Shown: piece by piece, positions 5,905-27,180 of the stretch
How the letters are laid out: the number at the start of each line of letters is the position of its first letter
Position numbering within the stretch: position 1 is the first letter of the stretch
Virus record (IMG/VR): IMGVR_UViG_3300020109_000011
Location: 1 to 64,000 of that record
Strand: one strand, 5' to 3'
DNA: 64,000 nucleotides
From: a virus
The notes under the pieces: generated by a model
The model's database searches: none
Told to the model about the DNA's origin: nothing
The model's input: only the letters and a program-made list of their open reading frames with translations
Translations under genes and position numbers: made by a program

Positions 5905-6695
5905 CCTCGCCCGCCTACCGGATCCCGGCCGACTACCCGCCGGACCAGGTGCCGCCCCAGCCCGCTCGCCCAGCGGGTCCGCAGGCCCAGGCGGTGGTCG
6001 AGGCCCAGGAGTTCGAGGTCGGGGCCGTGGAGCCCGCGCTGGCGGCCTTCATCGCGGCCGTGCTGGCCTACTCCCGGGGGTCGGGGCACCTGATGGGCTC
6101 CCCGTTCACCGTGGCCCAGAAGGTCGGCTACTACGCCGCCGTGGCCGGGATCCTGCGGGCCATCGCCGCGCGCTCCCTGGAGCACCAGCGGGCCTGGAAC
6201 GGGCGCCGAGCGGCCGAGGAGTTGTGGACCGGGCAGGACGCCGGGATCGCAGCCGGTGAGGCCGCCGGGCTCCGGACGCTCTCGCAGGCCGCCCGGGTCA
6301 TCGCGCGCAAGGCGCGGCAGGACGAGGCGGCCGGGGGCAGCCCGGGGATCTCGCTGCCGGGGGAGCCCTACGACCCCACCGCGCCGGACACCGCCCAGAC
6401 CTACTCCGACCCCGGACAGATCGCGCTCCCGGTCGTGCAGTCCACCCGGCACGCGGCCCAGCTGGGGGCGGCCAGCGAGGCGGGCTGGACGCGCAAGACC
6501 TGGGTGGACATGCACGACACCCGGGTGCGCGCCAGCCACGCCTTCCTGGGCAGCCCGAAGTACGAGTTCCACACCGTGCCGATCCTGGAGCCCTTCGAGA
6601 CCATCGACGGGAACAAGCTCTGGTACCCCGGCGACACCTCGGCCCCGGTGCACGAGTGGATTCGGTGCCGCTGCTGGCTGAAGCTCTCCCGGTGA
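5901..6695 (+). CDS. MuF-like / phage head morphogenesis protein
   Basis: KTWVDMHDTRVRASH ... PF ... LWYPGDTSAPVHEWIRCRC MuF signature; GTGA overlap with terL. Confidence 0.85.
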   Translation: MTSPAYRIPADYPPDQVPPQPARPAGPQAQAVVEAQEFEVGAVEPALAAFIAAVLAYSRGSGHLMGSPFTVAQKVGYYAAVAGILRAIAARSLEHQRAWNGRRAAEELWTGQDAGIAAGEAAGLRTLSQAARVIARKARQDEAAGGSPGISLPGEPYDPTAPDTAQTYSDPGQIALPVVQSTRHAAQLGAASEAGWTRKTWVDMHDTRVRASHAFLGSPKYEFHTVPILEPFETIDGNKLWYPGDTSAPVHEWIRCRCWLKLSR

Positions 6696-8567: not shown

Positions 8568-8588
8568 GTGTCAACCGGCCGCTACTCT
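8568..8588 (+). promoter_or_regulatory. Putative leaderless promoter of the head operon (GTGTCAACC-N6-TACTCT-N6-ATG)
   Basis: TAnnnT hexamer 6 nt before the portal ATG; 9-mer motif upstream. Confidence 0.55.
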
Positions 8589-8594
8589 GCTGGC

Positions 8595-10244
8595 ATGGCG
8601 GGTGGCGGCGTTCTCCGGCGACGGCGTGAAGCGACCCCGGAGGCGATGACCGCGTCCGCTCAGGTGGTCCGGATGCCCGAGCGGAAGGCCCAGGCGGCGC
8701 CGTACCGGCAGCCGCGCGCCATCGTCGCCTCGGCCGAGCGCGTGGACCTGGACACCGCCTGGACCGAGCGCGCGAACGCCTCCTACAAGTCCTCCCAGGA
8801 CGAGGCCTGGATCGGCTACCAGCGGGTCGGCGAGATCCACTACGGCTTCAACCTGGTCGCCAACGTGCTGTCCCGCCTGCGGGTCTACCCGGCGGCCATC
8901 CCGGAGTCCGAGGAGGCGCCTCAGGGCGCGAAGGACGCCGCCGACCGTGGGCGCATCTCCTCCGACCTGGCGCGCGACGCCGAGGAGGTCATGCGGCAGA
9001 TCACCGGGCCGACCTTCTCCCAGCTGGTCCGCAGCTTCGCGCTCAACATCAACGTGCCGGGCGAGTGCTACCTGGTCCGGCTGAAGGAGCGCACGAAGGA
9101 GGGCAACGAGACCGTCCAGTGGAAGGTCGTCTCCACCGACGAGCTCGTGGTGGACGTGAACGGTGCGACCCTCCGGCCGCTGCGCGGGCAGACCGCGAAG
9201 GAGAAGCGGCTGCCGAAGGGCACCTTCGTCGGTCGCATCTGGCGCTCGCACCCGCGCTACTCCGGGGAGCCGGACTCCAGCCTCATGGGCGTCGCGGACG
9301 CCATCGAGGAGTTGCTGATCCTCCAGCGCCTGGTGCGCTCGGCGACCCGCTCGCGGCTGAACAACGGCCTGCTGTTCCTGCCCGAGGGTCTGCTGTCGGC
9401 CCGGATGCAGATGGCCATGCAGGGCCTGGACGAGGCCGGGAACCCCCTCTCCGACGAGGAGAAGGAGGCGATGGCCAACGACCCCGGCAACCAGCTGGTG
9501 GCCGACCTGATGCAGGCCATCGTCACGGCGGTCAGCGACGAGGGCGACGCCTCGGCCGTGGCCCCGCTGATGGTGACCGGTGAGGGCTCGCTGGCCGAGC
9601 AGATCAAGCACATCACCTTCGAGCGCGGCAGCGACGAGTGGCTGGTCAACCGGACCGAGCGCGCGCTGGAGCGGATCCTCCAGGGCATCGACGTGCCGAA
9701 GGAGGTCGTCACCGGGCTGGCCAACGTGAAGTATTCCAACGCGCTGGTCATCGATGAGAACCTCTACAAGGCCAACATCGAGCCCCTGGCGCTGGTCCTG
9801 GTGGACGCGCTCACCGAGGTGTTCCTGCGGCCCCTGCTGCGGGCCCGGGGCTACGACGAGGCCGACCTGGACCGGATCGTCGTCTGGTACGACCCGAGCG
9901 AGATCGTCACCCGGCCCAACCAGGCCGAGGACGCCAGCGACGGCTACGACCGCTACCTGGTCGGCCCGGGCGCCTGGCGGCGCGAGCACGGCTTCGGCGA
10001 CGACGACGCCCCGACCGAAGCCGAGCTCGGGATGATGCTGCTGACCAGCGGCGCGCCCCTGCCACAGGATGTCCAGATGGCCCTGCTCCAGGCGATGCTG
10101 CCGAAGATCCTCGGCCAGCAGCGCGAGGAGAACATGGGCAACCAGCCCGTGCCGTTCCCCCAGAGCGCGCAGGACGTGCTCTCCCCGACCCCCGAGGCCT
10201 CGGCCAACGTCAGCGACGCAGCCACTGGAGAGAACGCCGCGTGA
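8595..10244 (+). CDS. Portal protein
   Basis: Position after terL/MuF; VGEIHY..ANVLSR, NINVPGECYLV, RIWRSHPR..PDS, RSRLNNGLLFLP, VWYDPS motifs of cluster-B-like portals. Confidence 0.9.
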   Translation: MAGGGVLRRRREATPEAMTASAQVVRMPERKAQAAPYRQPRAIVASAERVDLDTAWTERANASYKSSQDEAWIGYQRVGEIHYGFNLVANVLSRLRVYPAAIPESEEAPQGAKDAADRGRISSDLARDAEEVMRQITGPTFSQLVRSFALNINVPGECYLVRLKERTKEGNETVQWKVVSTDELVVDVNGATLRPLRGQTAKEKRLPKGTFVGRIWRSHPRYSGEPDSSLMGVADAIEELLILQRLVRSATRSRLNNGLLFLPEGLLSARMQMAMQGLDEAGNPLSDEEKEAMANDPGNQLVADLMQAIVTAVSDEGDASAVAPLMVTGEGSLAEQIKHITFERGSDEWLVNRTERALERILQGIDVPKEVVTGLANVKYSNALVIDENLYKANIEPLALVLVDALTEVFLRPLLRARGYDEADLDRIVVWYDPSEIVTRPNQAEDASDGYDRYLVGPGAWRREHGFGDDDAPTEAELGMMLLTSGAPLPQDVQMALLQAMLPKILGQQREENMGNQPVPFPQSAQDVLSPTPEASANVSDAATGENAA

Positions 10245-13200
10245 GCGAGTCCAAGCACTACACGACCGCGATCCTCGCCGCCGTCCCCGCGACGGACGAC
10301 CCGGTCCACGAGGTCGTCGCCGAGGACGCCCACGTCACCCTCCAGTTCCTGGGCGAGGCGGCCGAGCTCTCCGAGGAGCAGGTCGAGGAGATCACCACCG
10401 CGCTGGAGATGCTGGCCAGCGTCGTCTACCCGTTCGAGGCCGACATCTCGGGCACCGCCGAGCTCGGGCCCGACAAGGCGCAGGTGCTGCTGGTCCAGAG
10501 CGCGCTGCTGACCAAGGTCCGCGAGACGCTGGGCATGGTCGAGGCCGTGTCAACCGCCGTGGCGGCCAGCGACCAGTTCCCGAACTGGATCCCGCACCTG
10601 ACGCTGGCCTACGAGGGCGAGATGCCCGACGTGAGCAGCTACAAGACGGTGACCATCGGCTCGCTGGAGCTCTGGCTGGCCGAGAAGAAGACGGTCTTCC
10701 CACTGGCCCAGCCGAAGGACGCGGTCACCGCCGCCGGGCTCAAGGTCTTCGAGGAGCACCTGCACCCGCGCGGTGCGGACGGCCGCTTCATCGAGAAGTT
10801 CGGCGTGATCAAGTTCCTGACCGCCAAGGGCTGGCAGTACGGCAAGGTCGAGGGGATCTACGAGGAGAACGGCCAGGTCAAGCTGACCGTCAGCCCCTCC
10901 AACCTGTCCGGGAAGACCCACGGCGAGTCCGTCGTGCTGACCCCGAAGCAGGTCTACCGGGCGCCGAAGACCAAGGCGCACCTGCTGGTCAACCAGTCCG
11001 GCGTGACCAAGATCGGTGGCCAGGGCGGCTCCAACCCCGGCGGCCTCTACTCGATGCCCGCCCAGGTCCCGCACCCCGACGGCAGCGTGGAGCTCACGGG
11101 CGAGCAGGACCAGTTCTACGTCAAGACGCCGAAGTCCAAGGCCATCGGTCAGAACGAGGCGCTGACCAACGCGCTGTACGAGCACGCCGGGGTGCCGGTC
11201 CCCGAGGTGGACCTGGCCAGCGACGGGAAGCTCTACAGCAAGATCGTCAAGGGCCAGCAGGACATGGCCCAGCAGCTGTCGAACGCGGACTGGAAGGACC
11301 AGGTCCGGCGGAACTTCGTCGTGGACGCCTGGCTGGCCAACCGCGACGTGTTCGGCATGACCTACGACAACATCCTGACCGACGAGCACGGCGTGCCGTG
11401 GCGCATCGACAACGGCGGCGGGCTGCTCTACCGGGCGCAGGGCGCGAAGAAGACCGACTTCGGCTCGCAGGTCACCGAGCTCGACGCCTTCCGGCAGGGC
11501 AAGAAGGCCGCGATCTTCGGCCCCGAGATGTCGAAGGCCCAGGAGATCGACGGGGCCGAGCGCGTGCTGGCCATCTCCCCGGCCGACATCGATGACCTGG
11601 TCAAGGCCCACGGCCTGCCCAAGTCGCTGGCCGACACCCTGAAGGCCCGGCGGCTCTACATCGCCGACTACTACGGCCTGACGCTGCCGGAGTCCAAGGC
11701 CCCGGCCGAGGCCGAGGGCCCGACCAGCGCGCCGCTGGTGGACGCCCCCGACATCGCCGAGAACGAGGGCCACAACCGCAGTTGGTTCAAGGTCAACCTG
11801 TCCCAGCTGGGCTTCGTGGCGAGCACGGGGGACCTGCTGGAGCTTCCGGACGGGAGCACGAAGCTGCTGGGCGTCGGGGACGACGGCCAGGCGCTGTCGA
11901 TGGTGGGCGCCCAGGCCCAGCTGCTGGGGCTCATGCAGACCATCGGGCCCGAGGCCCAGGTCTACCTGAAGAAGCAGATCGACCCCCAGCAGTCCCGCCC
12001 CGACCACGGGTCGAAGCTGAAGGGCAGCGACCTCACCTCGCAGCGCTGGAAGCGCGGTGACCAGGTCATCGACTCCGACGGCGTGCCGTGGAAGGTGCTG
12101 GGCTGGAACGAGGACACGGGCGCGATGCTCGTGCAGTTCGCCAGTAAGGCCCCGGTGCTGCTGGACACCCACGGCAAGGACAAGGGCGAGACCTTCACCG
12201 TCCAGCGCTGGGACCCGCCTGCGGTTGACACGGCCGAGCCGGTGCAGACCGAGCAGCAGGCCATCGACCAGGTCCAGACCGCCGTCTGGATCAACCCGCC
12301 GCCGGTCAAGATCGAGACGCTGACCGAGCCCGACGACGAGCTCACCACCTACACGCAGAGCGAGAGCGGCACCTACGTCCCGAAGGTCGTCCCGGCCGAG
12401 ATCGTGGACGAGTTCCTGGCGCCGCTCCCCGCCGAGAGCACGAAGACCGGCCAGGCCGCGCAGGCCGAGCAGGCCATCAAGGCCGACCTCAACCAGCCGC
12501 TGCCCACCGGAAGCGGCGCTCCGGCGCCCGCGAAGACCAGCGCGCCCGGCGGCGCGAAGGTCATGGTCATCGGCGACGGCACCGAGGCTGCCACCGGGGA
12601 TTCCGTCACGTCCAAGAAGGACGGCAAGACCTACGTCTTCGTGAAGCCGAAGGGGCAGTACGCGGTCGTCACCGACCCCAACGGCGAGGACCCGACCAAG
12701 CAGCTGCTGAAGCTGGCCAGCACGATGACCCAGCCGGGCAAGGCCCCGGCCGCCGACGCCACCGAGGTCGAGGCGCCGAAGACGGCCACGGGCGAGGTCC
12801 CGCAGCTGGGCATGACCGCGCTGGCCAAGGACGGATGGGCGGGCACCATCACGCTCATCTCGCCGGACGGCAAGTTCGTCTTCATCACCGACGCCAACGG
12901 GAAGCGGAAGCGGAAGTCCACCGGCACCGTCTCCATCACCGGGGGCACCCCGGCGGTGGTTGACACCCCGGCCCCGGCCACGGCTCCGGCCGCTCCGGCC
13001 CCGCTGAAGCCCTACGGCCCGGCCCCGGCCAACGTCCCGGCGGCCAAGGCCGCGCTGGGGGACATCTCCTTCGACCTGGACGACCCGGCCGACCTGGACG
13101 CCGGGGACATGGTGGTCGTGGGCTACGCGGACGGCACCATCGGCCTGGAGCCCTACACCGGCCAGCCGCTGGACAGCCTGCTGAAGAACACCACCGGCAA

Positions 13201-16200
13201 GGTGGCCACCCACAACACGATCACGGTCTACCAGGGCCCGGTGTCGGCCGAGCAGTTCGTGGCGGCCACGGCGGCCAAGGCGGGCTCGCACCCGAAGCAC
13301 TACTTCGTCTTCTGGGACAGCAAGGTCTTCCTGACCGACGGCAAGACCGGGCCCAACGGCGGCCTGATCCTGTGGGACTCGGAGAACCCGAGCACCTACG
13401 CCCTGGAGCTCCCGAAGACCGGCCACGTGCTGGTCATCGCCGACAGCACCCCGGCCAACGAGTCCGGCATCGTGCTGCCCGACTTCGAGACCATCGGCTC
13501 CTCCCAGGTGCTCGACAGCGGCTGGACCCCCGCGCTGCCGCTGTACGGCGACGAGGCGAAGACGTTGGCCGACTGGGGCCAGGACATCGGCGTGGGCTCG
13601 GAGATCTCGCTGGACGGCGAGGAGTGGCTGAAGGTCACCGCCGTCACCGCCAACGGCGTGACGGTGCAGGACTCGAACGAGGCCAACACCTACCTGACCA
13701 CGAAGGCCAGCATGGCGAAGTGGGTCATCAAGGCCCCGCCGATGAAGGACGGTGACGCCCCCAACCCGGCCTTCCAGCCGGGTGCGAAGGACCCGGACCT
13801 GGACGAGCTCCCGGTGCAGTCCGGGAAGAAGAAGATCGCGGACCTGGCCTCGGGTGACGTGGTCATCGACGCCCACGGCGGCACCACGATCATCGACTCG
13901 GTCCTGGTGGACCCCGACGCCCCGGGGATCCACAAGGCCGAGATCACGGCGATGGGGGAGCAGGACACCTTCCCGGCCGATCCCAACCAGGTGCTGGACC
14001 ACCTCGGCAACATCACCGAGGACTTCGTGACGGTCCCGCTGGAGACGGTGCTGGACCACCTCTACCCGGGCGCGCAGTTCCAGATGGCTGGGCAGACCAT
14101 GCAGCTGGTCAGCTACCCGCAGAAGCTGGACAACGGCAACTACCGCTTCGCGGTCATCCCCGAGGGCGAGCCCGGCAGCCCGCTGCTGTACGAGGTCGGT
14201 CAGTACGACCTGGGCGCCGACATCTCCAGCGAGTTCGTCGTCCCGGTCAAGCTGGGCAGCTTCTCCTCCGCGCAGGACGCCGGGGCCGACCTGATCCAGC
14301 TGAACGCGCTGTTCGACGCGGCGGCCACGCAGAAGCAGGACACCCCGGACTACTCGGCGGCGATGACCGACGCGGGGATCCCGTTCGGCACGGCGCAGTA
14401 CCCGATCTACTACGGCGCGCAGTCCGAGACCTTCTTCCGTGCCGCGCACTCCGGCATGGAGGAGTGGGACCCCGAGGGCGGGGTCTGGAACAAGGTCGGC
14501 GGCTCGGTGGCCGAGAAGACCAAGGTCTGGGACGGCGTGCCCTTCACCGGCACGCTGAAGGCGCCCGAGGGCTTCCAGGACAGCACCATCGGGATCACGG
14601 CGGGCCTGACCTGGGCGCTGGAGAACTACAAGCCGAAGCCGGGCGAGACCATCCAGGTGGTCAAGATGCCCCAGCTGTCGGGGAAGTCGCTGCTCATCAG
14701 CTACCCCTACGGTCTGGACGGCCCGGCGCACACGATCCTGGACGACCAGGCGGGTGGCCTGCACGCCTCCACCGACCCCTTCGCCGGGGACTGGAAGGAG
14801 TCCGGCGGCTTCAGCGACTACACGGTCATCCACGACCCGTTCGCCGCTCCCACGCCCGGTCCGCAGCTGACCCACCAGGCCGCACCGCAGCCTCCGGCCG
14901 TGCTGGGCGCCCACCTCCAGACGGCGGGCTACGAGCCGACCCCCGGCGAGCAGTTCATGGTGGTCAACCAGGGCACGGCCACGCGCGTGTGGACCAAGCA
15001 GCCCGACGGGACCTACGTCCGGATCTTCGGCTCCGGCGCGGTCGGCAACACCCCGTGGGACCTGGACGACATCAAGCACACCTTCGAGGGCTGGGACCAG
15101 TTCACCTTCACCTGGCTGCCCGAGGGCGCCGACGCCCCGGCGGCGGTGGCCGGGATGCCCGAGGGCTACGCGCCGTTCGTGCCGGGCGAGGGCCAGTCCC
15201 TGATCAAGGTGACCCTGGGCAACGGCAAGCAGAACGTCTACCTCCAGAAGCAGCCCGAGGCGGGCTGGTACGAGCTCGGCCCCGATGGCGTGGTCAGCGA
15301 GGCCAGCGACGCCGTCAAGAGCAACTTCGTCGTCCAGCAGAAGCTGGCAGGCCAGGGCCTGGGCACCGGCACGGTGAAGTACGAGCTCCTGCACCCGAAG
15401 CCGGAGGGCCAGAAGCAGGCCGACAAGCCGGTGCCGGAGTTCAGCAACTCCACCGGCACGTGGACCCCGGAGGCGGGCCAGAAGGTCGTCGCGCTCACCA
15501 GCTACCCGGGCGACTCGGACCCCTGGTTCTACGTCCAGAGCGAGCCGGGCGGGGACTGGGTGCCGAGCCCGAACACCCCGGACACCACGGCCCAGAACGA
15601 CAGCGCCGTGCAGAACGGGATCTCGGCGGGCCAGAAGGCCTCGGGGTCCAGCTGGACGCTGGTCTACGACGGCGACAGCGGTCAGGCGGCGGTTGACACG
15701 CCGGAGAAGGCGCTCGCGTCCTTCCACCACCACGTCCCGCTGCCCGACACCGAGGTCTACCAGGACGCGCAGGGCGACTACTGGGCCCAGCAGGCACCGG
15801 GCGGGAAGTTCTACTACGTCAACCCCGAGACCGGGACCTACTCCCTCGGTGGGCTGACCGAGCAGGACATCACCGACTCGGCCGAGGACATGACCAAGGT
15901 CTGGCCGACCGAAGACGGTCCGGCCATCGAGACCCTGACCGAGGCCTTCAGCGGGTACACCCCGAAGCCGGGCGACACGGTCATCAAGTGGACTCCGGCC
16001 AGCGGGAACGCGGTGTGGCTGGTCCTGGCCGAGGGCGAGACGGTCTACCACCCGATCTCCAGCGAGGGCGAGATCGTCCAGAGCGGCGGGATCGCGCAGT
16101 ACCAGCTGGACCAGCTGAACGCCCCGGGGTCCAACCAGACCGTCGAGACGGTCTGGCCGCCGAGCGCGCAGGGCAAGGGCATCGAGGTCGGGGGCTACCA

Positions 16201-19200: not shown

Positions 19201-19270
19201 GGTCTCCTACGACGCCCCTGCTGCCCCGGCTGGCGCCGAGGGCCCGACTGGTGGAGAGGCTGCCGCCTGA
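10241..19270 (+). CDS. Giant 3009-aa multidomain head-region protein: 2H phosphoesterase, HPRG module, kinase-like domain, repeats, ART-like C-terminus
   Basis: AHVTL/PHLTL (2H); FYVK..NE..DAWLANRD..DNI..IDNGG (PI3/4K/HipA-like); coupled to the portal stop; strong codon bias. Confidence 0.9.
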   Translation: MSESKHYTTAILAAVPATDDPVHEVVAEDAHVTLQFLGEAAELSEEQVEEITTALEMLASVVYPFEADISGTAELGPDKAQVLLVQSALLTKVRETLGMVEAVSTAVAASDQFPNWIPHLTLAYEGEMPDVSSYKTVTIGSLELWLAEKKTVFPLAQPKDAVTAAGLKVFEEHLHPRGADGRFIEKFGVIKFLTAKGWQYGKVEGIYEENGQVKLTVSPSNLSGKTHGESVVLTPKQVYRAPKTKAHLLVNQSGVTKIGGQGGSNPGGLYSMPAQVPHPDGSVELTGEQDQFYVKTPKSKAIGQNEALTNALYEHAGVPVPEVDLASDGKLYSKIVKGQQDMAQQLSNADWKDQVRRNFVVDAWLANRDVFGMTYDNILTDEHGVPWRIDNGGGLLYRAQGAKKTDFGSQVTELDAFRQGKKAAIFGPEMSKAQEIDGAERVLAISPADIDDLVKAHGLPKSLADTLKARRLYIADYYGLTLPESKAPAEAEGPTSAPLVDAPDIAENEGHNRSWFKVNLSQLGFVASTGDLLELPDGSTKLLGVGDDGQALSMVGAQAQLLGLMQTIGPEAQVYLKKQIDPQQSRPDHGSKLKGSDLTSQRWKRGDQVIDSDGVPWKVLGWNEDTGAMLVQFASKAPVLLDTHGKDKGETFTVQRWDPPAVDTAEPVQTEQQAIDQVQTAVWINPPPVKIETLTEPDDELTTYTQSESGTYVPKVVPAEIVDEFLAPLPAESTKTGQAAQAEQAIKADLNQPLPTGSGAPAPAKTSAPGGAKVMVIGDGTEAATGDSVTSKKDGKTYVFVKPKGQYAVVTDPNGEDPTKQLLKLASTMTQPGKAPAADATEVEAPKTATGEVPQLGMTALAKDGWAGTITLISPDGKFVFITDANGKRKRKSTGTVSITGGTPAVVDTPAPATAPAAPAPLKPYGPAPANVPAAKAALGDISFDLDDPADLDAGDMVVVGYADGTIGLEPYTGQPLDSLLKNTTGKVATHNTITVYQGPVSAEQFVAATAAKAGSHPKHYFVFWDSKVFLTDGKTGPNGGLILWDSENPSTYALELPKTGHVLVIADSTPANESGIVLPDFETIGSSQVLDSGWTPALPLYGDEAKTLADWGQDIGVGSEISLDGEEWLKVTAVTANGVTVQDSNEANTYLTTKASMAKWVIKAPPMKDGDAPNPAFQPGAKDPDLDELPVQSGKKKIADLASGDVVIDAHGGTTIIDSVLVDPDAPGIHKAEITAMGEQDTFPADPNQVLDHLGNITEDFVTVPLETVLDHLYPGAQFQMAGQTMQLVSYPQKLDNGNYRFAVIPEGEPGSPLLYEVGQYDLGADISSEFVVPVKLGSFSSAQDAGADLIQLNALFDAAATQKQDTPDYSAAMTDAGIPFGTAQYPIYYGAQSETFFRAAHSGMEEWDPEGGVWNKVGGSVAEKTKVWDGVPFTGTLKAPEGFQDSTIGITAGLTWALENYKPKPGETIQVVKMPQLSGKSLLISYPYGLDGPAHTILDDQAGGLHASTDPFAGDWKESGGFSDYTVIHDPFAAPTPGPQLTHQAAPQPPAVLGAHLQTAGYEPTPGEQFMVVNQGTATRVWTKQPDGTYVRIFGSGAVGNTPWDLDDIKHTFEGWDQFTFTWLPEGADAPAAVAGMPEGYAPFVPGEGQSLIKVTLGNGKQNVYLQKQPEAGWYELGPDGVVSEASDAVKSNFVVQQKLAGQGLGTGTVKYELLHPKPEGQKQADKPVPEFSNSTGTWTPEAGQKVVALTSYPGDSDPWFYVQSEPGGDWVPSPNTPDTTAQNDSAVQNGISAGQKASGSSWTLVYDGDSGQAAVDTPEKALASFHHHVPLPDTEVYQDAQGDYWAQQAPGGKFYYVNPETGTYSLGGLTEQDITDSAEDMTKVWPTEDGPAIETLTEAFSGYTPKPGDTVIKWTPASGNAVWLVLAEGETVYHPISSEGEIVQSGGIAQYQLDQLNAPGSNQTVETVWPPSAQGKGIEVGGYQTQPTDNVVQFVAQSGTTVTAVQQPDGSWAPIMGGQLEPDDGYSQSTIEWAANPDSGLELTVLQGTLKGAPPAEPEALPTTVTPYAGVNQTTVLAQTNWALEDPAAPLTEYGKTKVQGLTLQPGESAYVASGNGSYVYVRDSAGNWNYVYGDSGEQNLEFSSDEEMEQHLANTSQTLNKVKFATPQAAPVSAPTTYAGPSISGWAAQGLPDPATMGFLGGPEGAAGMQKGMWLFTQADSSLAQGNGTGLYVQLAEDVKPGQTGTVKVQAYAPVQSGDVKDIKHPSNGGTINFNLGQVKHIYGQNASGIPSPDGQQAPVAAPSAPQSAPEAPKAAPAYPGAQKPSQEDINAWGGALTKDGHIPTAGMFVTGKGPMSGKIISVSKDKTKATVLTADGSKSTRLISALKTDPSANYSAYAAPVTLKDIPGGMPLAVDTVAEALEKTAKDGKFRAILNGHPGVSQGQMVVTKTTAPSGKVFNRVHLTLTPAQRAELLATLAGTGEKGDWVKSSKMSDQVAVGDQLPMRKSSTDNPDGTPRWKVDPETKPPTHTVTKVEDDPSGSGVKVVTLKNTVTGEEITSRFHAGKSLSVYAWDPNKPKPVTAGAFSVSETAKAMGWQFVTDGGISAIKGGADKGTLYNEPGSAVTKSALGQVSHSWKTLRNVSQDGVVIEIADPKGADTHSTTGVTVISLPEGADEKALGAALSKMGIDYRPMNQDDAKVAVRGVLRTLLSLDTSDVDTPKHYTDEQLFKQAGQTMGISDLGWQDVLVGVDESTGKTSFFWSDRARAALAGKVSYNLVYRAASTGTAAQIVSTVKYGSASSILKKTTGMLDGSGSVGNGASASSDNSNHAGHGSYASASKEFKLPSTNAQAGYKGSVGIMVYHRPEAVLGRIMDYRVSASDAFGMGHGSGSDHLKYATSMGKVKDYFLGGGLPTEAVGFIAVQDSGERAKAIEQLKAEGFGVINGRPVEDIVITKQKAATLTPDDLPPVTIPANARPILDLPVSYDAPAAPAGAEGPTGGEAAA

Positions 19271-20139
19271 TGACCGCCCCCGTGCAGTTCCCGAGCCTGG
19301 CGATGGTCGAGGTGTCGGGCATGGTGCTCACCGACGCCGTGACCGACACCCAGGAGCGGCTGACCAAGCTCCACCCCGTCCCGGGCCTGGTGGCGGGTGC
19401 CGACCAGGGCGGCTGGGCCGTCGGGTGGGACGAGGACGGCCGGGTCAACGGGGTCATCCTGACTTCCGTCACGGACGAGGGTGACTGGATCGTCGGGTCC
19501 GACACGGCAGGGGTCCAGTACCGCTTCCGCGACCTGGACACCTACGACGCTGTGATGATGTCGCCAGCAGGAGTGCCGCAGCCGCTGATCGCGGTGCAGG
19601 CACACGTACTTCGAGGGGGAGCCTTGGCCGACAGCCTGGACGCGGTGGTCGCGGCCGACAACACGGTGGCGACGCTGATGCTGGAGACCGGGGTGGGCAC
19701 CTTCGTGCGCTACTCCGGGGACTGGCAGCAGCTGCGCGACGACAGCGGCGCCCTGGAGGACATGGCGCTGGTCTCCGTCGCGCCCGGCGCGCTGGACGTG
19801 TGGGACGCCGCCGACTCGGCCGGTCAGACCATCTCGGTCTTCGACCTGCCGCTGAAGGGCGACGGCGGGGAGACGATCAACCCCGAGCCTCAGGTGGACC
19901 TGGAGACTGCTGCCGCCATCGCGGCCAGCGGGGTCTCCATCCCCCAGATCGACACGGTCGAGGATCTGGACCTGGGCATCCGGTACGGCAACGGCCACCC
20001 CGAGGCCCGCTGGTACGTCACGAAGCGGGCGCGGGCCCTGGCGGCCAGCGCGCGGATCCCGGCGCACTGGAACGTGGCCCCGGCGGCCGTGGCGCCCCCT
20101 TTCGCGGCCCTGGCGGCCGAGGGGCTGGCCGAGATGTAG
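19270..20139 (+). CDS. Head-region protein of unknown function
   Basis: TGATG coupling; C-term IPQIDTVEDL..WYVTKRARAL..IPAHW resembles a motif of phage head/protease-associated proteins. Confidence 0.75.
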   Translation: MTAPVQFPSLAMVEVSGMVLTDAVTDTQERLTKLHPVPGLVAGADQGGWAVGWDEDGRVNGVILTSVTDEGDWIVGSDTAGVQYRFRDLDTYDAVMMSPAGVPQPLIAVQAHVLRGGALADSLDAVVAADNTVATLMLETGVGTFVRYSGDWQQLRDDSGALEDMALVSVAPGALDVWDAADSAGQTISVFDLPLKGDGGETINPEPQVDLETAAAIAASGVSIPQIDTVEDLDLGIRYGNGHPEARWYVTKRARALAASARIPAHWNVAPAAVAPPFAALAAEGLAEM

Positions 20140-20210
20140 CTGACCAGGTCCGCGCGACGGCCGGGCTGTTCTCGGACATCTGCGCGAGTGGGAGAACCCC
20201 ACCCGAAGGG

Positions 20211-21656
20211 ATGTTCCGTGCGCTCATCGCTGCCGCGCGTGTCACTGGCCTGTTGCAGGATCCTGCTGTGCTGACGGCGGCCAAGTGGCAGGACTGGCTG
20301 CACCCGCGCGGCAAGGACGGGCGCTTCATCGAGAAGGGCTCGTTCGTCAACATCTTCGCCGACCCCAACGCCTGGACCGGCGACCGCACGGCTGTCCGGC
20401 GGCGGGCGAAGATCGTGGAGCTCCGGCCCGAGGGCGCCTACGTCGCCTACCAGGACACCGAGGGCAAGCCGCTGGACCCCGACCCGAGCTCGGGCTTCCC
20501 CGACCTCATCCCGGTGGACCAGCTGGGCCAGAAGGTCTCCACGGCGCCGCAGGCCATCGCGCACCTCCAGCCCGGCGAGTCCGCCGCCAAGGAGGTCAAG
20601 GACGCGCTGGTCCCCGCGCTGGGCCTGGACGAGTGGAAGGCCGAGATCCAGACCCTGTCCGACGGGCTGGCCGAGACCTTCCCCGAGCAGGCCGACATCG
20701 TGTCAACCGGCCAGGACAAGATCACCGACGAGGCCTTCCTGGAGCACCAGCGCTACGTCACGCTGGCCACGAAGATGGGCCTGCACGGGCCCGGCCGGTC
20801 GATGTCCATCGACGGCTCGATGAAGGACTCCTTCGGCCTGTGGTCGGAGGAGATGCGCGAGGTCTTCGAGGGCATGGTCAACGCCGCCTACGACGAGCTC
20901 ACCGCCGGGCAGACCAAGCCCCGGGACTCCCGGGCCATCGTGCTGGGCGGTCTGCCGGGCGCCGGGAAGTCCTCCACGCTGGACGCGATGGCCGAGTCCA
21001 AGGTCTTCAACAAGGACGAGTGGATCATCGCCAACCCCGACTGGTTCAAGGACCGGATCATCGCCCAGGGGCTGGCCCCGCAGATCCACGGCCTGGCCCC
21101 GGCCGAGACGGCCAGCTTCATCCACGAGGCCTCGTCCGAGATGAACCACATGCTGGAGCAGCTGCTGACCGTCGAGGGCTACAACGTCATCTTCGACATC
21201 ACGCTGGGCTCCAGCTTCTGGACCGGCGAGACGATCAACCGGCTGGAGAGCCTGGACTACTCCATCGACGGGATCTTCGTGGACGTGCCGCCGACCACCG
21301 CGCGTACCCGCTCCCAGTCCCGGCACCGCTCCGGCCTGGACGCGCTGCGCACCGGCCAGTCCCGGCGGACCGACGACCCCGAGCTCTCCAACGGCGGCCG
21401 GGTGGTCCCCGAGGCCGTGCTGGCCGCCGCCGAGATCGACAAGAAGGACCCCGACGCCGAGACCTACAACTCGGCGAACGCCCGGAACTTCGACCAGATC
21501 AAGGGCCAGTTCGCCCGCTGGGCGGTCTGGGACAACTCGGGCGATTCCCCGGAGTTCATCGACGGCTCCGGCATCGGCCCGGACGACCCCCAGTCGATGC
21601 CCGGCTACTACCCGTCCGGCCCGACCGTCGCTGCTGTCCTGGAGGCCTCTGCATGA
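20211..21656 (+). CDS. Zeta-toxin-family P-loop kinase with N-terminal HPRG module
   Basis: LGGLPGAGKSS, IANPDWFK, FIHEASS, VIFDITL, GGRVVPE; likely ATG 20211 within ORF 19800..21656. Confidence 0.85.
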   Translation: MFRALIAAARVTGLLQDPAVLTAAKWQDWLHPRGKDGRFIEKGSFVNIFADPNAWTGDRTAVRRRAKIVELRPEGAYVAYQDTEGKPLDPDPSSGFPDLIPVDQLGQKVSTAPQAIAHLQPGESAAKEVKDALVPALGLDEWKAEIQTLSDGLAETFPEQADIVSTGQDKITDEAFLEHQRYVTLATKMGLHGPGRSMSIDGSMKDSFGLWSEEMREVFEGMVNAAYDELTAGQTKPRDSRAIVLGGLPGAGKSSTLDAMAESKVFNKDEWIIANPDWFKDRIIAQGLAPQIHGLAPAETASFIHEASSEMNHMLEQLLTVEGYNVIFDITLGSSFWTGETINRLESLDYSIDGIFVDVPPTTARTRSQSRHRSGLDALRTGQSRRTDDPELSNGGRVVPEAVLAAAEIDKKDPDAETYNSANARNFDQIKGQFARWAVWDNSGDSPEFIDGSGIGPDDPQSMPGYYPSGPTVAAVLEASA

Positions 21657-21991
21657 CCACCCCCGAGCGCTCCGAAGTGCCTCAGGGCGAGAACGTCCAG
21701 GCGGTGCGGGACGCCATCGAGGCCATGCGGACCGGCTCCGGCGACTTCGAGGGGCTGCGCGCGGCCGTCTCCGGCGCCCGCTTCGCGGTGCGCCCGACGG
21801 CCCGCAGCGAGGAGGACGTGGCCGCCGCCTGGGACTACGTCCCGCTGCCGGACTCCTTCACCGATACCGTGGAGGCGGCGAGATGGCAGAAGATCATCAC
21901 GCCTGAGCAGGTGGGGGAGCTCCGGAGCATGGCCCAGTTCGTCGCAGAGGCGCCCAGCCGGATGCCGCAGGAAGACCGGGGGGCAGCCTGA
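21653..21991 (+). CDS. Small helical protein (candidate antitoxin/immunity for the zeta domain)
   Basis: ATGA overlap with the zeta gene; GGAGG SD; function inferred from position only. Confidence 0.7.
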   Translation: MTTPERSEVPQGENVQAVRDAIEAMRTGSGDFEGLRAAVSGARFAVRPTARSEEDVAAAWDYVPLPDSFTDTVEAARWQKIITPEQVGELRSMAQFVAEAPSRMPQEDRGAA

Positions 21992-24366
21992 TGACCAGCC
22001 TGATGATGTCGGGGTACGGCCTGAAGAAGCTGCCGACCCGTTCGGTGCGCGAGGCGGCCAGGGAGTCCTCCGACCCCTACGCCAGCCTGGTGTCAACCGG
22101 CAACGTCCGGCCCTGGGACCTGTTCAGCATCCAGGCCAGCTGCGGGATCCCCGGCGCGCGTGAGTGGGCCGACCGCACGCTGGACGCCGTGCTCGCCGCC
22201 GCGCTGGAGCCGGTGAAGCCCGCGCTGGACTGCGAGGACTGCATCGACCTCGGCTTCTACGGCCGGGTGGACCGCTCCGACCCCGACACCCTCACCGCGC
22301 TGCTGCGCCGGGTGGGTGACGGCGGGTACGAGCAGCTGACCGTCAGCGGCACCTGGCAGGCCTACGAGATCGTGGCCGACCAGCAGCTGGAGATCCTGAC
22401 CCGCGAGCTCGCCGGGGACCTGGCCGAGGCCATCACGGCCGGGGCCAGCGGGCTCACGCGCCGGTACTTCTGGCCCGCCGCGTTCCTGCCGCCGAGCGCG
22501 ATGATCGCGGCCGTCCCGGCCGACCAGGTCACCGCCGCGCTGCCCGAGACGGTGGCCGTGGACAGCCAGGACGCGCTGGACCCCGAGCTCGCATCCGAGC
22601 AGGGCTGGGTGGCCTACGCGGTCGTGGACGACCTGGACCCCGGTGCCGTGCTCGACCTCATCCGGCTGCGCCGGGGAGCGACCGGGCCCGAGCTCGTGGC
22701 CTACCGCAACGGCGCCTGGAGCGAGGCGCCGGAGATCCTGGCCGACCTCCAGGGCGTGCAGCCCCCGCCGCTGGTGGAGCTCGACCAGGCCCAGCAGGCC
22801 AGCGTGCTGGAGCAGATCGGCGGCGTGCCCGAGGGCAGCGAGGACTCCGGCGACCCGGGCGAGGGCCTGGACGAGGCCGACAAGGTTCCGCCGCTGGCCG
22901 CTGCCGCCTTCGGCCGGAAGACCCCGGACCGCCTGGGCGCCCTGCTGGCCGACGCGCCCCTGACCGTGAGCCCGGACCCGCGCGCCGAGAAGCTGCGCCG
23001 GTACTGGACCACCGGGAAGGGCGCGGCGAAGATCCGCTGGGGCACCCCCGGCGACTGGACCCGGTGCTACCGCCAGCTGCGCAAGCACATGGGGCTGCGG
23101 GCCAAGGGCTACTGCCAGAACCTGCACAAGCGCGCCACCGGCATGTGGGCCGGTGACCGAGGCAACCGGGGCGGCGGACGTGCTGCCGCCCTGGCGGCGG
23201 CTGGAACCCCAGCTGCCCAGTCGATGGAGGTCGCGCTGGTCGCGGCCGTGTCAACCGGGCGCTGGTTCTGCCCGGAGGGAGGCACCACCATGCTGAAGGA
23301 CGGCATCTACGTGGAGGGCGGCGAGAACGTCGCGCTGCTGCGGACGCTCACCGCCGGGGGCTTCCCGGTCGCGCCGCCGGACGAGTGGTTCGAGAACCCC
23401 CAGCTGGACGGCCCGACGCCGCTCACGGTAGACGACGACGGCCGGGTCTACGGCCACATCGCCACCCGCGACGTGTCGCACATCGGCCTGCCGGGCCGGG
23501 TCAAGGCGCCGATCTCGAAGACGGACTACGCCTACTTCAAGACCGGCCAGCTGGTGACCGCCAGCGGTCGGAAGGTCAACGTCGGGCAGCTGACCCTGGC
23601 CGGGGGCCACGCGCCCCTCCAGGCCGACGCAGCGGCGGCCGTGGCCCACTACGACAACACCGCCAGCGCGGTGGCCGACCTCAACGCCGGGGACGACCAG
23701 TGGGGCATCTGGGTGGCCGGGGCCGTGCGCCCGGAGGTCACCCCCTCCCAGCTGCGCACGCTGCGCGCCAGCGCGCCGTCGGGCGACTGGCGGCCGATCA
23801 ACGGTCGGCTGGAGCTCGTGGCCTGCTGCCAGGTCAACGTGCCCGGCTTCCCGGTCGTGCGCGCCCGGGTGGCCAGCGGCGCCATCACCAGCCTGGTGGC
23901 GGCCGGTGCGGGGCCGCTCTACGCCCGGCGCCTGGCGCTGATGGCCGACGCGGCCACGGCCGAGCGCATCACCGCGCTGGAGAACGCCGTCTTCGCCCAG
24001 CTGACCGCCGGGCTGGAGGACCCCAGCGAGGTCATCGTGGCCGACGGGGAGGGCGAGGGCCTGGATGGCGGGGAGCCGATCTCCGAGGAGCAGGCAGCGG
24101 CCGAGGGCCTGGAGGACGAGGACCCGGCGGCCGAGCCGGAGATCAGCGACGCCGTGAAGCGCGCACGGGAGGCCGTGGCCGCGCGGAAGGCGGCCCAGCC
24201 TGCTGAGGCGGCCGTGGAGGCCACGGAGGAGCCTCCGGCACCCGAGGAGACCAGCACCGACCCCGCCAAGGCCACGGACGAGGACAAGGAGCGCGCCGAC
24301 CGGCTGGCCGCGCTGCGCGCGCGGGTGCACGGCAACCGCGAGCCGGTCGCCGCCTCCGGCTCCTGA
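21991..24366 (+). CDS. Capsid maturation protease fusion (cluster-B-like) with scaffold-like C-terminus
   Basis: PPDEWFENPQLDGPTPLTVDDDGRVYGHIA..HYDNT..GIWVAGAVRP..SGDWR..VNVPGFP; upstream GDWTRC..GYCQNLH domain; acidic tail. Confidence 0.8.
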   Translation: MTSLMMSGYGLKKLPTRSVREAARESSDPYASLVSTGNVRPWDLFSIQASCGIPGAREWADRTLDAVLAAALEPVKPALDCEDCIDLGFYGRVDRSDPDTLTALLRRVGDGGYEQLTVSGTWQAYEIVADQQLEILTRELAGDLAEAITAGASGLTRRYFWPAAFLPPSAMIAAVPADQVTAALPETVAVDSQDALDPELASEQGWVAYAVVDDLDPGAVLDLIRLRRGATGPELVAYRNGAWSEAPEILADLQGVQPPPLVELDQAQQASVLEQIGGVPEGSEDSGDPGEGLDEADKVPPLAAAAFGRKTPDRLGALLADAPLTVSPDPRAEKLRRYWTTGKGAAKIRWGTPGDWTRCYRQLRKHMGLRAKGYCQNLHKRATGMWAGDRGNRGGGRAAALAAAGTPAAQSMEVALVAAVSTGRWFCPEGGTTMLKDGIYVEGGENVALLRTLTAGGFPVAPPDEWFENPQLDGPTPLTVDDDGRVYGHIATRDVSHIGLPGRVKAPISKTDYAYFKTGQLVTASGRKVNVGQLTLAGGHAPLQADAAAAVAHYDNTASAVADLNAGDDQWGIWVAGAVRPEVTPSQLRTLRASAPSGDWRPINGRLELVACCQVNVPGFPVVRARVASGAITSLVAAGAGPLYARRLALMADAATAERITALENAVFAQLTAGLEDPSEVIVADGEGEGLDGGEPISEEQAAAEGLEDEDPAAEPEISDAVKRAREAVAARKAAQPAEAAVEATEEPPAPEETSTDPAKATDEDKERADRLAALRARVHGNREPVAASGS

Positions 24367-24403
24367 CCTCCGACCCGGCCTGCCCACCCCCGAGAGGACC
24401 CGC

Positions 24404-26440
24404 GTGCTGACGACCGCCGAGCGCCTGGATGTGCTGGAGCGCGCGGTGACCGCCGCCTTCGACCCCAGCCAGCCGCGCGACAAGAACGGCCGCTGGATCG
24501 ACACGTTCTCCTCGGTGCACTTCTCCACCGGCCTCATGGGGAAGAAGCGGGCAGGCCGGGTCGCCGGTCCCACCGCCGGGAAGCCCGGCTACTTCGACGT
24601 GGTGGAGAGCGGCAGCGGCAAGCGCACCAGCATCCGCTCGGACAAGCTGGAGGTCATCGACGCCCGGGCCCGGCTGGACACCGGCCTGGACGAGGCGACT
24701 CGGGGGCTGATCGACCGGACCAGCCAGCGTCTGGGCCCTGGGGCACCGTCGGCGCCCGCGCCCGCGCCTGCACCGGCTCCCGTGCCGGAGGCGCCCCGGC
24801 CGGTTGACACGCCCGCCCCGGTCATCGACATGGCCCAGCGGGCCCCGAGCCTGCCCGGTCGCAAGACCGCCGAGGAGGCTCCGGCCGGGGAGCGGTTCCA
24901 CGCGAAGGGACCCGACGGGCAGGGCCTCCAGCTGCTGCTGGCGGGCAAGGCCCGTCGGTCCGACGGCGGCTGGACGATCATCGGCCACGACCAGGAGGGC
25001 AACTCCCACCGCGTCGTGGTCCCGCCCGGCGGCACGCTGCGGACGATCCAGCCCGACGCACCCTGGCCGGACACCCGCAACGTGCCCGAGCCCCCGAAGG
25101 ACCCCCAGAAGCCGGGCACGCCGCGCGGCAACGCCACGCTGGAGGATCTGGAGGCCGAGGCCGCCGCCAACGGCGAGATCGTGCTGTACCACGGCGGCCT
25201 GCCCGAGGGCACCGGGATGGACGACATCGACCTGGGCCGCGCCGGGAGCCAGCAGAACAAGAAGGGGAAGTCCTACGGCGGCTTCTACCTGACCGACCCC
25301 GGCTCGAAGGACTGGTCCACCGACTACGCGCGGGGCCGCAACGGGGTCATGCACGGCTTCCGGGTCAGCAAGGACGCGAAGGTCGGCGACCTGGGCAGCA
25401 AGAACATCGACCGCCTGTCGGCGAACGAGCGCGCGTCCCTGGCCGAGCAGTTCGACGTGGTCAAGGGCAAGGACACGATGGGCCGCGACCAGTACGTCCT
25501 GCTCAACAAGGACGCCATCTCGGGCGTGGGCGAGACCAACGTGGGGCTGGGCCGCACGGGCAACGTCGGGACCCGGCCGGTGGCCGCCGCACTGCTGGCT
25601 GCGCCGCCCCCGGCTGGGGGCCCGGCGCACCGGATCGCGGCCGACTACGGCGCCAAGAGCAAGAAGAAGGGCCGGAAGGTCGCCACGAAGGCCGGGGAGA
25701 AGCGCTACGGCCTGCCCATCGGCACCCCGCTGGGCCAGGGCAAGGCGAAGAACGAGCAGGACGCCTACAAGCGCTTCACCGACCAGAAGACCCCGGCCGA
25801 CCTCGCGCGAACCGCCTCGTACATGAGCAACGGCGACCTGGCCCTGACGGCCAAGGCCGTGTTCGGCGTGAAGGGCCAGAACGAGTGGGACAAGGCCGCG
25901 CAGATCGCGCTGGTGAAGGAGCTCGCCCAGCGGGGGATCGACCCGCACGGGCTGGGCTACGAGGGCGGCTTCGTCGCGCTGAACCCGAACCCGAAGAAGG
26001 ACCCGACGATCAAGGCGGCGAAGAAGCCGAAGGCCTCCGAGCTCCCTGACAGCGTGGACGCCGAGAAGCTGTCCGACGCGGACCTGAGCGTGCTGGCCGA
26101 AGCTGGCTGGAAGGGCCGGGCCGACGACCAGCGCGAAGCTCTCTACGCCCCGGAGAATCCCGGACCGCTGCCGTCCGGCCGCCTGAGCCAGCCCGCCAAG
26201 GAGATGCTGCTGGCCCAGGGCTGGCGGACACAGGGCGACCAGCTGGTGCCGCCGAAGACGCAGGTCGAGAAGGAGAACGAGCGCCTGGCCCGGGAGGCCG
26301 AGAGCACGGCCAAGAAGGCCGAGACCGAGCGGAAGAAGGCCGAGGCCGAGGCCGAGAAGGCGCGCAAGGCGGCCGAGCGCCAGGCCGAGCGCGAGCGGCT
26401 GGCGGCCGAGGAGTTGGCGACCATCCCCCGGCGCCGCTGA
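24404..26440 (+). CDS. ADP-ribosyltransferase-domain protein with N-terminal QPRD module and C-terminal coiled coil
   Basis: IVLYHGG ... GGFYLTD ... DYA ... QYVLLN (H-Y-type ART); FDPSQPRDKNGRWID; RKVATKAGEKRYGLPIGTP. Confidence 0.8.
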   Translation: MLTTAERLDVLERAVTAAFDPSQPRDKNGRWIDTFSSVHFSTGLMGKKRAGRVAGPTAGKPGYFDVVESGSGKRTSIRSDKLEVIDARARLDTGLDEATRGLIDRTSQRLGPGAPSAPAPAPAPAPVPEAPRPVDTPAPVIDMAQRAPSLPGRKTAEEAPAGERFHAKGPDGQGLQLLLAGKARRSDGGWTIIGHDQEGNSHRVVVPPGGTLRTIQPDAPWPDTRNVPEPPKDPQKPGTPRGNATLEDLEAEAAANGEIVLYHGGLPEGTGMDDIDLGRAGSQQNKKGKSYGGFYLTDPGSKDWSTDYARGRNGVMHGFRVSKDAKVGDLGSKNIDRLSANERASLAEQFDVVKGKDTMGRDQYVLLNKDAISGVGETNVGLGRTGNVGTRPVAAALLAAPPPAGGPAHRIAADYGAKSKKKGRKVATKAGEKRYGLPIGTPLGQGKAKNEQDAYKRFTDQKTPADLARTASYMSNGDLALTAKAVFGVKGQNEWDKAAQIALVKELAQRGIDPHGLGYEGGFVALNPNPKKDPTIKAAKKPKASELPDSVDAEKLSDADLSVLAEAGWKGRADDQREALYAPENPGPLPSGRLSQPAKEMLLAQGWRTQGDQLVPPKTQVEKENERLAREAESTAKKAETERKKAEAEAEKARKAAERQAERERLAAEELATIPRRR

Positions 26441-26452
26441 CCGGTTGACACG

Positions 26453-26489
26453 ACAGAGGCCCCCCGCCCGATGGGCGAGGGGCCTCTGT
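26453..26489. terminator. Hairpin between convergent genes
   Basis: acagaggcccc-ccgccc / gggcga-ggggcctctgt. Confidence 0.7.
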
Positions 26490-26506
26490 GCTGAGAAGGG
26501 GGCTTA

Positions 26507-26926: not shown

Positions 26927-27180
26927 CGGGCGGTCCTCTCGTCGGTGGTGCGGTCGCTGGTGGTCCCGGACTTCGGGGCGTAGTGCCCCGCCGCCCAGAC
27001 GGCGGTCCCCAGGATCAGGACCACGCCCGCGAGGGGCGAGGCCTGGGCGAGCAGGAAGACCGTGATCGCCCAGAGGACCCACTTCGTCCTCGGGCTCTCG
27101 TCCTGTGCGGGCTTCCGCTCCCGGGTGCTGGCCACGAAGACGGGGCCGACCTGGACGCCCACGGTGCTGTGCTCGCTCAT
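26923..27180 (-). CDS. Small membrane protein
   Basis: SD GGAGG; hydrophobic hairpin WVLWAITVFLL..VVLILGTAVW. Confidence 0.7.
   Translation of the reverse strand: MSEHSTVGVQVGPVFVASTRERKPAQDESPRTKWVLWAITVFLLAQASPLAGVVLILGTAVWAAGHYAPKSGTTSDRTTDERTAR

Follow-up and report, generated by a model that had tools for sequence, protein, structure and literature searches.

How tailed phages other than T4 select the proteins that are carried in the capsid and injected is largely unknown. In T4, the internal proteins IPI-III and Alt, which include an ADP-ribosyltransferase, are packaged in the head and injected, and their N-terminal leader is removed by gp21. Polyvalent proteins, as described in the main text of PMC5512222, are large multi-domain chains whose genes lie in the portal-terminase head region and for which packaging and injection have been suggested; their repertoire includes 2H domains fused to or beside portal or MuF, zeta kinases, and ART-PolyVal, PBECR and LPD domains, and their processing into units has been proposed as well and assigned to MPTase domains. 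According to the main text of PMC5576092, MuF toxins combine a constant, head-associated N-terminal MuF domain with a swappable toxin, and their gene lies beside the portal gene. In the giant phages SPN3US and phiKZ, the prohead protease processes a large number of proteins inside the head at a short consensus, and these proteins are ejected into the host (PMC10052503 and PMC7411985). The main text of PMC5512222 yielded no shared junction peptide or header barrel, and that of PMC5576092 no mention of a junction motif. Here we analysed a stretch of 64,000 nucleotides (the window), the first 64 kb of the 86,483-base IMG/VR record IMGVR_UViG_3300020109_000011, which belongs to an uncultured phage with a GC content of ~70% and is rated complete by CheckV. 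Between portal and capsid lie three genes with homologous modules of ~90 residues, each module placed ahead of a different enzyme, and we describe this module as the candidate header of capsid-carried cargo.

The third-position GC content (GC3) and PHROG matches define one rightward head operon in the order large terminase (TerL), MuF-like protein, portal, giant, zeta, protease, ART (ADP-ribosyltransferase-like) protein, major capsid protein (MCP) and major tail protein. The three cargo genes of this operon are the giant gene (10241..19270, +; 3009 residues, GC3 0.98), the zeta-toxin gene (20211..21656, +; 481 residues) and the ART fusion gene (24404..26440, +; 678 residues), which joins a module, an ART-like domain and a conserved basic protein. 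The products of the three genes would class as polyvalent proteins of the phage type, or packaged effectors, and they differ from the described polyvalent proteins in that three genes share the cargo and every one of them has a header. They are not MuF polymorphic toxins, because neither Pfam nor PHROGs finds MuF in the three chains, the MuF-like gene of the operon (5901-6695) being separate. The preliminary description of this DNA had called the system MuF-independent, which holds for the cargo chains and not for the operon. Compared with the T4 internal proteins, we see no sequence likeness and a protease that is apparently of another family. Additionally, the T4 signal is a removed leader, whereas here the conserved peptide follows the proposed cut and would stay on the cargo; apart from this, the cargo may by analogy work like the T4 proteins. 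In the zeta and ART proteins, putative leaders of 16-23 residues precede T-A-A. The SPN3US and phiKZ phages are unrelated to this one, and no shared peptide after the cut is known from them.

The module follows one layout in all three genes, namely a hydrophobic residue followed by T-A-A, a peptide of the form [WF]xxx(H/Q)PR[GD]xxGR[FW]I, a small β-barrel and a PKxKAHL-like end. Specifically, module 1 (10709..11005, +; giant residues ~157-255) consists of AVTAA, HPRGADGRFIEK, the barrel and APKTKAHL; module 2, in the zeta gene (20250..20585, +), of AVLTAA, HPRGKDGRFIEK, the barrel and APQAIAHL; and module 3, in the ART gene (24437..24679, +; residues ~12-92), of AVTAA, QPRDKNGRWID, a divergent barrel and ARARLD. 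The string A-V-(L)-T-A-A stands 9 to 14 residues ahead of the motif in each of them, and a wider alignment reveals P-K-x-K-A-H-L-(D) as a second conserved string at the module end. A six-frame scan of the 86,483-bp genome with P[RK]x2-4G[RK][FWY] returned nine matches, three in real coding frames, which are those of the three modules, and the other six in Arg-rich off-frames. By BLASTP, the giant and zeta modules match at E 1e-7 over 104 columns, and the ART module matches that of the giant at E 2e-4 over 40 columns and that of zeta at E 0.013 over 18 columns, both in the motif region only. To avoid circularity, we built a profile (A2) from 21 module rows, none of them of ART type. It aligns by hhalign with the ART-type N-termini (P0003 and P0192) at 93.7% probability and E 1.9e-7 over 57 columns, which cover the motif and most of the barrel, and with P0003 alone at 69% probability and E 4.5e-5 over 38 columns. 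Since the profile holds no ART-type row, this match identifies the ART module as a true, divergent member of the family. At the DNA level, positions 10760-10798 of the giant gene match the zeta module over 39 bases with 90% identity (E 2.6e-9). The three related modules of the preliminary description were thus all recovered, with homology supported by BLASTP and hhalign, and the DNA likeness that it noted for two of them was borne out.

An AlphaFold2 model of the giant module (mean predicted local distance difference test score (pLDDT) 84.2) adopts a five-stranded barrel, in which the HPRG stretch is well ordered (75-93) and the T-A-A stretch poorly ordered (block mean 55). The nearest structures are SH3-like barrels of the Tudor, chromo, BAH and KOW kinds, with VIA Z 8.9-7 and a best Foldseek E of 0.054. 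These scores are ordinary for common barrels, so that the model supports the SH3-like barrel of the preliminary description as a fold class, with no finer assignment. No match to the module was found in Pfam (E <= 5) or NCBIfam (E <= 1), and the PHROG matches of the giant, zeta and ART proteins leave it uncovered.

To gauge the spread of the module, we searched 1.84 billion representative proteins with a profile built from 12 modules. The search matched 587 representatives at E <= 1e-3 and 109 at E <= 1e-10, many with 3-17 copies; the module is therefore no peculiarity of this phage, and the concept of packaged effectors is itself known (PMC5512222). Full modules (profile positions ~3-93) occur once or twice per protein, mostly near the N-terminus, and at least 23 of the 146 listed proteins combine a full module with a kinase domain whose glycine loop lies ~85-90 residues beyond HPR. 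The short core (positions ~7-30) occurs in 3 to 17 copies in proteins of up to 7334 residues, mostly without a barrel. Among the 136 listed motif-bearing proteins, the first motif lies within 70 residues of the N-terminus in 83. The consensus of 326 instances is A(-8) A/G(-7) x [WF][DN][EP] x [LK] H P R [GD] x [DH] G [RK] [FW], in which H, P, R and both G are 94-100% conserved and the Ala at -8 is present in 37%. The ART-type spelling FDPxQPRDxxGRW and the HPRG spelling coexist within the same proteins. The domains directly after the motif include ART-PolyVal, Zeta, GNAT, NUDIX-linked ART, ADPrib_exo_Tox, LPD3, Gln_amidase and PBECR1.

The exact degenerate DNA pattern for the W-D-E spelling is present in at least 120 IMG/VR stretches and in 46 stretches of one-per-species genomes, which span Actinomycetota, Bacillota, Bacteroidota, Planctomycetota, Verrucomicrobiota, Spirochaetota, Desulfobacterota, Melainabacteria and Proteobacteria. 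The reversed pattern, used as a control, gave 0 matches in 29 records. A tblastn search of the module against 72,556 plasmids (E <= 0.01) gave no match, a result that is not informative on the short motif. Literature searches on the motif spellings, Gordonia phages, capsid targeting, polyvalent proteins, prohead proteases and MuF toxins found no description of the motif in the main texts. The junction peptide is thus widespread and apparently undescribed, and the barrel module of the window is its local and elaborate form. Asp occupies the middle position of P-R-G..G-R in 45% of the instances, which led us to discount an AT-hook-like DNA-binding role for it. Three metagenomic proteins of 3696-7334 residues (P0047, P0048 and P0126) give ~9 to 15 ART-PolyVal-type hmmsearch rows each, many of them partial fragments, with HPRG junctions between.

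The chains that carry the modules hold two or more effector-type domains in the case of the giant (2H and kinase-fold) and the ART protein (ART-like and basic part), and a single enzyme domain in the zeta protein. The N-terminus of the giant matches Pfam 2_5_RNA_ligase2 (2H phosphoesterase, PF13563) at residues 28-130 with 33.9 bits against a cut-off of 27, and both HxT motifs, HVTL and HLTL, are present. The domain directly after module 1 (10991..11680, +) was modelled with AlphaFold2 at pLDDT 66, and 49 of the 50 top VIA rows of this model are kinases (Z 9.8-8.4, 169-186 aligned residues, root-mean-square deviation 3.4-4.2, alignment spanning model residues 1-230). The top kinases are CotH (Z 9.8), CtkA (9.6), actin-fragmin kinase (9.1), PI4KIIalpha (8.9), MavQ (8.9) and HipA (8.5); Foldseek places HipT first (E 1.2e-3), and a language-model atlas returns PI3_PI4_kinase, HipA_2 and LepB_N at 0.91-0.92. 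The strings DAWLANRD...DN and IDNGG are invariant across seven kinase-domain orthologues, and a sequence search of the Protein Data Bank (PDB) with phmmer found no match to this part. The model, of middling confidence, therefore predicts an atypical protein kinase fold, in agreement with the kinase-like domain of the preliminary description, as does the Pfam Zeta_toxin match (PF06414; 58.6 bits against a cut-off of 22.3) with Walker A GLPGAGKS for its zeta-toxin P-loop kinase. The architecture of the zeta protein recurs in 37 further proteins, and its gene most likely starts at ATG 20211, since the orthologues cover 100% of the query beginning there. One such orthologue (P0028) lies on an 85,438-base NCBI contig labelled Longimicrobium sp. 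(Gemmatimonadota), a label that may hint at the host or merely reflect the binning of a phage contig.

The third payload, which had been described as an H-Y-type ADP-ribosyltransferase, is half shown by sequence comparison. The candidate ART-PolyVal-like domain (25172..25528, +) contains LYHGG ... GGFYLTD ..., and hhalign aligns its family (P0003, P0191, P0192 and P0193) with 14 ART-PolyVal-type domains at 93.6% probability and E 2e-7 over 66 columns of the N-terminal part, including the H and Y regions; the third catalytic position was not located. BLASTP matches the ART protein to the ART-PolyVal region of P0167 at E 9e-5, and the same domain is fused to NUDIX in P0193; Pfam at E <= 5 gave no match to the ART protein. 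The remainder of this protein (residues 400-678; 25601..26437, +) is a conserved Lys-rich part, for which no family was found; it shows a coiled-coil tail and, as a separate gene in L004-L006, occupies the position of a scaffold-like or internal protein.

To follow the payloads among relatives, we compared five syntenic IMG/VR phages (L004-L008) as well as L015, L016, the more distant L017 and L020. By tblastn, the gene that separates protease and capsid in L004, L005 and L006 matches just residues ~400-640 of the ART protein and has no module or ART; the Lys-rich part is there a stand-alone gene, which begins near the equivalent of 25577-25591. Because of this partial match, the module and ART of the window are taken as an insertion ahead of the conserved Lys-rich protein. 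In L007, an open reading frame (ORF) of 864 residues encodes the conserved Lys-rich protein, then a module (residues ~289-365) and then a second zeta-like domain. L017, which shares the protease, capsid and tail-tube families of the window, carries at the same protease-to-capsid position a 358-residue gene with a module and an unrelated repeat region, and L016 combines a module with zeta; L008 gave no match to the ART protein. These comparisons indicate that the moving unit is a module together with its enzyme, and the earlier claim of swappable payloads is upheld, as the relatives lack the module and ART or carry a second zeta-like domain or a repeat protein behind the module. The giant orthologue of L004 aligns end to end (53% over 3077 columns). 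Beyond its kinase-fold domain, the giant has a long remainder without assignment. The C-terminal third of the giant (~16170-19270, residues ~1977-3009) is kept in the most distant relative L008 (37% over 1057 columns), and no Pfam or PHROG family matches it. In L015 (6393-14612), the open frame of the giant extends upstream; by eye, a peptidoglycan-binding-repeat-like segment and KRDTGGKF, a degenerate motif copy, precede the 2H domain.

The module is head-linked in every context that could be read. In the cultured Gordonia phages Sixama (gp73) and Phendrix (gp66), an N-terminal module is encoded right after the portal gene, and the protease family of the window recurs in both; further cultured Gordonia phages with the header include GodonK and Forza, and these phages grow on a laboratory strain (G. 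terrae 3612 in the case of Sixama and Phendrix). The module gene of L017 lies between protease and MCP, and in L020 the gene right after the protease encodes a 2368-residue protein with the motif at residue 13 and, by eye, ART-like and NUDIX-like strings. P0111 joins portal, 2H and module in one chain. Of the 16 records with a Phage_Mu_F match, 14 have their nearest motif on the same strand and no more than 5 kb away; in several, judged by ORF length, the two share one ORF. In Rhodoblastus acidophilus (L182) and an alphaproteobacterial metagenome-assembled genome (L164), the motif stands exactly between the portal domain and a C-terminal toxin, which is Gln_amidase or PBECR1 in these fusions. 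The head linkage that had been predicted is thus supported by cultured and uncultured phages alike. In a 105-kb phage with 45% GC (G020), the minus strand of locus L149 (12630-19806) holds a 604-residue ORF, two motif-bearing ORFs, one with MuF, and a 582-residue ORF with a Pfam S78 protease.

Next, we examined the residues before the motif as a candidate cut site. Herpesvirus assemblin cuts by a V/L-x-A|S rule, and phage prohead proteases share its fold; the cut consensus of SPN3US and phiKZ ends in Glu. The MCP of the window (27381..29096, +; phrog_777, E 1.4e-76) has, by alignment with relatives, an acidic propeptide of ~125-160 residues that contains EPVAAS (residue 70) and TPVTAS (residue 124). 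Where the MCP propeptide ends, the window, L006 and L007 have PVTAS or PVAAS, L017 has PVTSS or PVTAA, and Sixama and Phendrix have AMAAS; a string of the EPVAAS type is also found at the C-terminus of the protease protein. In the ART protein, PVAAA (residue 392; 25577..25591, +) is a candidate cut site at the seam with the basic part. Within the proteome, [AP]V.?[TA]A[AS] was observed 12 times against 2.4 +/- 1.5 in shuffled sequence, and 10 of the 12 sites lie in the giant, zeta, protease, ART and MCP, one of them being the seam site of the ART protein. Across the wider family, 59 of 312 motif instances have [VLIM][TA]A[AS] upstream, compared with 5 of 312 windows chosen at random. Each phage keeps the residues just before W/F constant, and they differ from phage to phage, with T-A-A in the window family and the Gordonia phages, F-K-A-D in Rhodoblastus, Lys in 7 of 9 junctions of G021 and, in each of the nine motif copies found in G020, Lys with [GAV] and/or Glu after it. 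The cleavage at TAA that had been proposed, placed here at T-A|A, thus gains circumstantial support from the like string at the capsid propeptide boundary, the cut itself being a prediction.

Additionally, we asked whether the motif is tied to the protease family phrog_18402. This was rejected, as that family was found in 1 of 29 motif-bearing IMG/VR records and in 1 of 13 motif records at least 90% complete, where the match lies outside the protease part of the profile. Because phrog_18402 is so rare among these records and G020 uses S78, the HPRG peptide is not taken as the determinant of one protease family, and we therefore divide the header into a variable string, the putative cut site, and the HPRG peptide, which would have another role.

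From the observed module homology, fold class, payload identity, swapping, head context and motif spread, we infer that the three genes encode capsid-carried cargo enzymes of the polyvalent type with a common cassette header, enzymes that would be loaded, cut and injected; we hold this preferred reading with moderate confidence, and the enzymes behind the junction peptide are probably carried in capsids. The header would comprise three parts: a short, flexible and lineage-specific string, here a hydrophobic residue followed by T-A-A/S, as the cut site of the prohead protease; the near-universal peptide [WF][DN][EP]xx-HPR[GD]xxG[RK][FW] ahead of effector domains; and, in this lineage only, the SH3/Tudor-like barrel ending in PKxKAHL. 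The giant would enter the procapsid next to the portal, and the free-standing zeta and ART proteins possibly by way of the barrel or of their short N-terminal leader. The protease would then trim the cargo at the header and at the junction of ART and basic protein, and the released enzymes, with the HPRG peptide now first, would exit along with the DNA to exert their effect on the host. This route would deliver, as payloads, a 2H phosphoesterase, an atypical kinase, a zeta kinase and an ADP-ribosyltransferase-like domain. The barrel, which occurs in some lineages only and on free-standing cargo such as zeta and ART, is our best candidate, at the level of a guess, for a docking element; for the HPRG peptide, a role common to tailed phages would be needed, with head retention or passage through portal and tail as the obvious candidates.

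Several points weigh against this reading. The strict upstream string is present in only 19% of the motif instances, the cut pattern was derived from 6 of the 12 sites counted, three of these 12 fall within folded domains, and a GC content of 70% makes Ala-rich strings frequent. The core motif is not bound to one protease family, and the HPRG peptide, if it were a protease determinant, would need to work with unrelated proteases. Confidence in the kinase model is middling, and the ART-PolyVal (PF18760) likeness is limited to the N-terminal half with the H and Y regions. Local profiles for protease, portal, MCP, MuF and TerL, applied to 120 motif loci, found head genes in 10 of the 68 loci of at least 8 kb, a count that we judge uninformative because the profiles are narrow and the loci short or filled by giant genes. 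Finally, the literature on Sixama and Phendrix yielded no virion proteomics, N-terminal or expression data, nor was any found for this phage.

Within the preferred reading, the function of the HPRG peptide can be stated more sharply. Since the motif is repeated ahead of every domain and is found even where portal and toxin are joined, entry into the head cannot be its sole purpose, and it fits the start mark of a releasable unit better. Our tentative and still doubtful proposal is that the peptide is a near-universal mark for the start of injectable cargo in tailed phages, that a lineage-specific prohead-protease cut just upstream of it would free every effector inside the capsid with the peptide as its new N-terminus, and that the peptide, aided here by the barrel, holds the unit in the head or permits its exit.

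The preliminary description had proposed instead a loading tag. As a pure loading tag, HPRG and barrel would bind a component of the procapsid (the portal, a scaffold-like propeptide or MuF) and thereby bring free-standing effectors in, in the manner of the T4 capsid-targeting sequence. Being free-standing, the zeta and ART proteins require a route into the head, the first motif tends to lie near the N-terminus, as counted above, and the giant gene abuts the portal gene. Barrels of the SH3-like class, moreover, commonly bind peptides or nucleic acids. For the short motif, however, this idea is weakened, since up to 17 copies occur in one chain, and the motif also stands between portal and toxin (L182 and L164) and in MuF ORFs, where loading is already assured and no tag is needed. 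In L007 the module is internal, and after the proposed cut the tag would remain on the cargo, unlike the T4 capsid-targeting sequence. We consider a pure loading tag rather unlikely.

Still less probable, in our view, is a host-side adaptor without a role in assembly, by which barrel and HPRG would bring the enzymes to one host structure after injection. The Tudor/chromo/KOW-like fold, the retention of the module on the enzyme after the proposed cut, and the fixed pairing of module and kinase fold in at least 23 of the 146 listed proteins would suit such an adaptor, but the short motif occurs without the barrel in most multi-copy proteins and also ahead of non-enzymatic or structural parts such as MuF, and the payloads have very different expected targets (a cell-wall precursor kinase, ART, GNAT and nucleases). 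An adaptor role is thus possible for the barrel and not for the bare motif. That the module is inert, a stable linker or cap copied with the cassettes by recombination, agrees with the packing of the HPRG stretch on the barrel in the model and with the giant/zeta DNA identity, which points to recent copying, but is highly improbable given the near-invariant H, P, R, G and G across phages of 45-70% GC, the many bacterial phyla, and the constant position of the motif in front of a domain.

The cargo genes flank the prohead protease gene, as had been described; the protease fusion gene (21991..24366, +; 791 residues) was identified by phrog_18402 (E 2.9e-53), with the protease part at residues ~446-667 and a phrog_6439 mini-domain at residues 329-394. 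Its protease part can be aligned by eye with Sixama gp79, which is annotated as a capsid maturation protease in its record. Pfam matched no part of the 791-residue protein, the phmmer search of PDB sequences with the protease part gave a single chance row (E 0.42), and a search with Peptidase_S77 (PF03420) found no match, a result that carries no weight, since its control matched nothing either. The N-terminal ~330 residues lack an assignment, and the acidic, scaffold-like tail ends in EPVAASGS.

The other genes of the operon are arranged as follows. The large terminase gene (4291-5904, +) is followed by that of the MuF-like minor head protein (5901..6695, +), unfused to cargo, with GC3 0.93-0.99 in frame; this protein matches phrog_2468 'head morphogenesis' at residues 185-262 (E 1.8e-14) and Pfam Phage_Mu_F at just E 0.17. 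Four small ORFs separate it from the portal gene (8568..10244, +; phrog_776, E 1.4e-99), whose 3' end shares 4 bases with the start of the giant gene. Downstream of the giant, a gene for a 289-residue protein (19270..20139, +), without Pfam or PHROG match, has orthologues 70% identical in L004-L006. A 113-residue ORF (21650..21991, +), which overlaps the stop of the zeta gene by 7 bases and is 57-77% identical in L004-L007, has no PHROG match; it may be a small head protein, or else counteract the zeta kinase as its antitoxin or immunity protein. The major tail protein gene (29144-30304) follows the MCP. None of the cultured phages is close at the DNA level: a megablast search of 8568-28000 against 50,697 phage records gave just one 67-base match of chance size.

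Together, ~16 kb of 'hypothetical' head-operon DNA can now be annotated as putative cargo, comprising a 2H phosphoesterase, an atypical kinase, a zeta kinase and an ART-like enzyme. To the known systems, the window adds the full barrel form of the header on three genes and the insertion of cassettes on either side of a conserved protein among close relatives, together with a candidate cut string common to the header and the capsid propeptide. A conserved header would give a rule for spotting injected effectors in genomes, as well as a defined peptide to mutate and a possible handle for loading proteins into heads, and the cultured Gordonia phages that carry it make the idea directly testable. 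If the peptide is indeed a start-of-cargo mark, injected effectors would become readable from any phage genome, and foreign proteins would be loadable into capsids.

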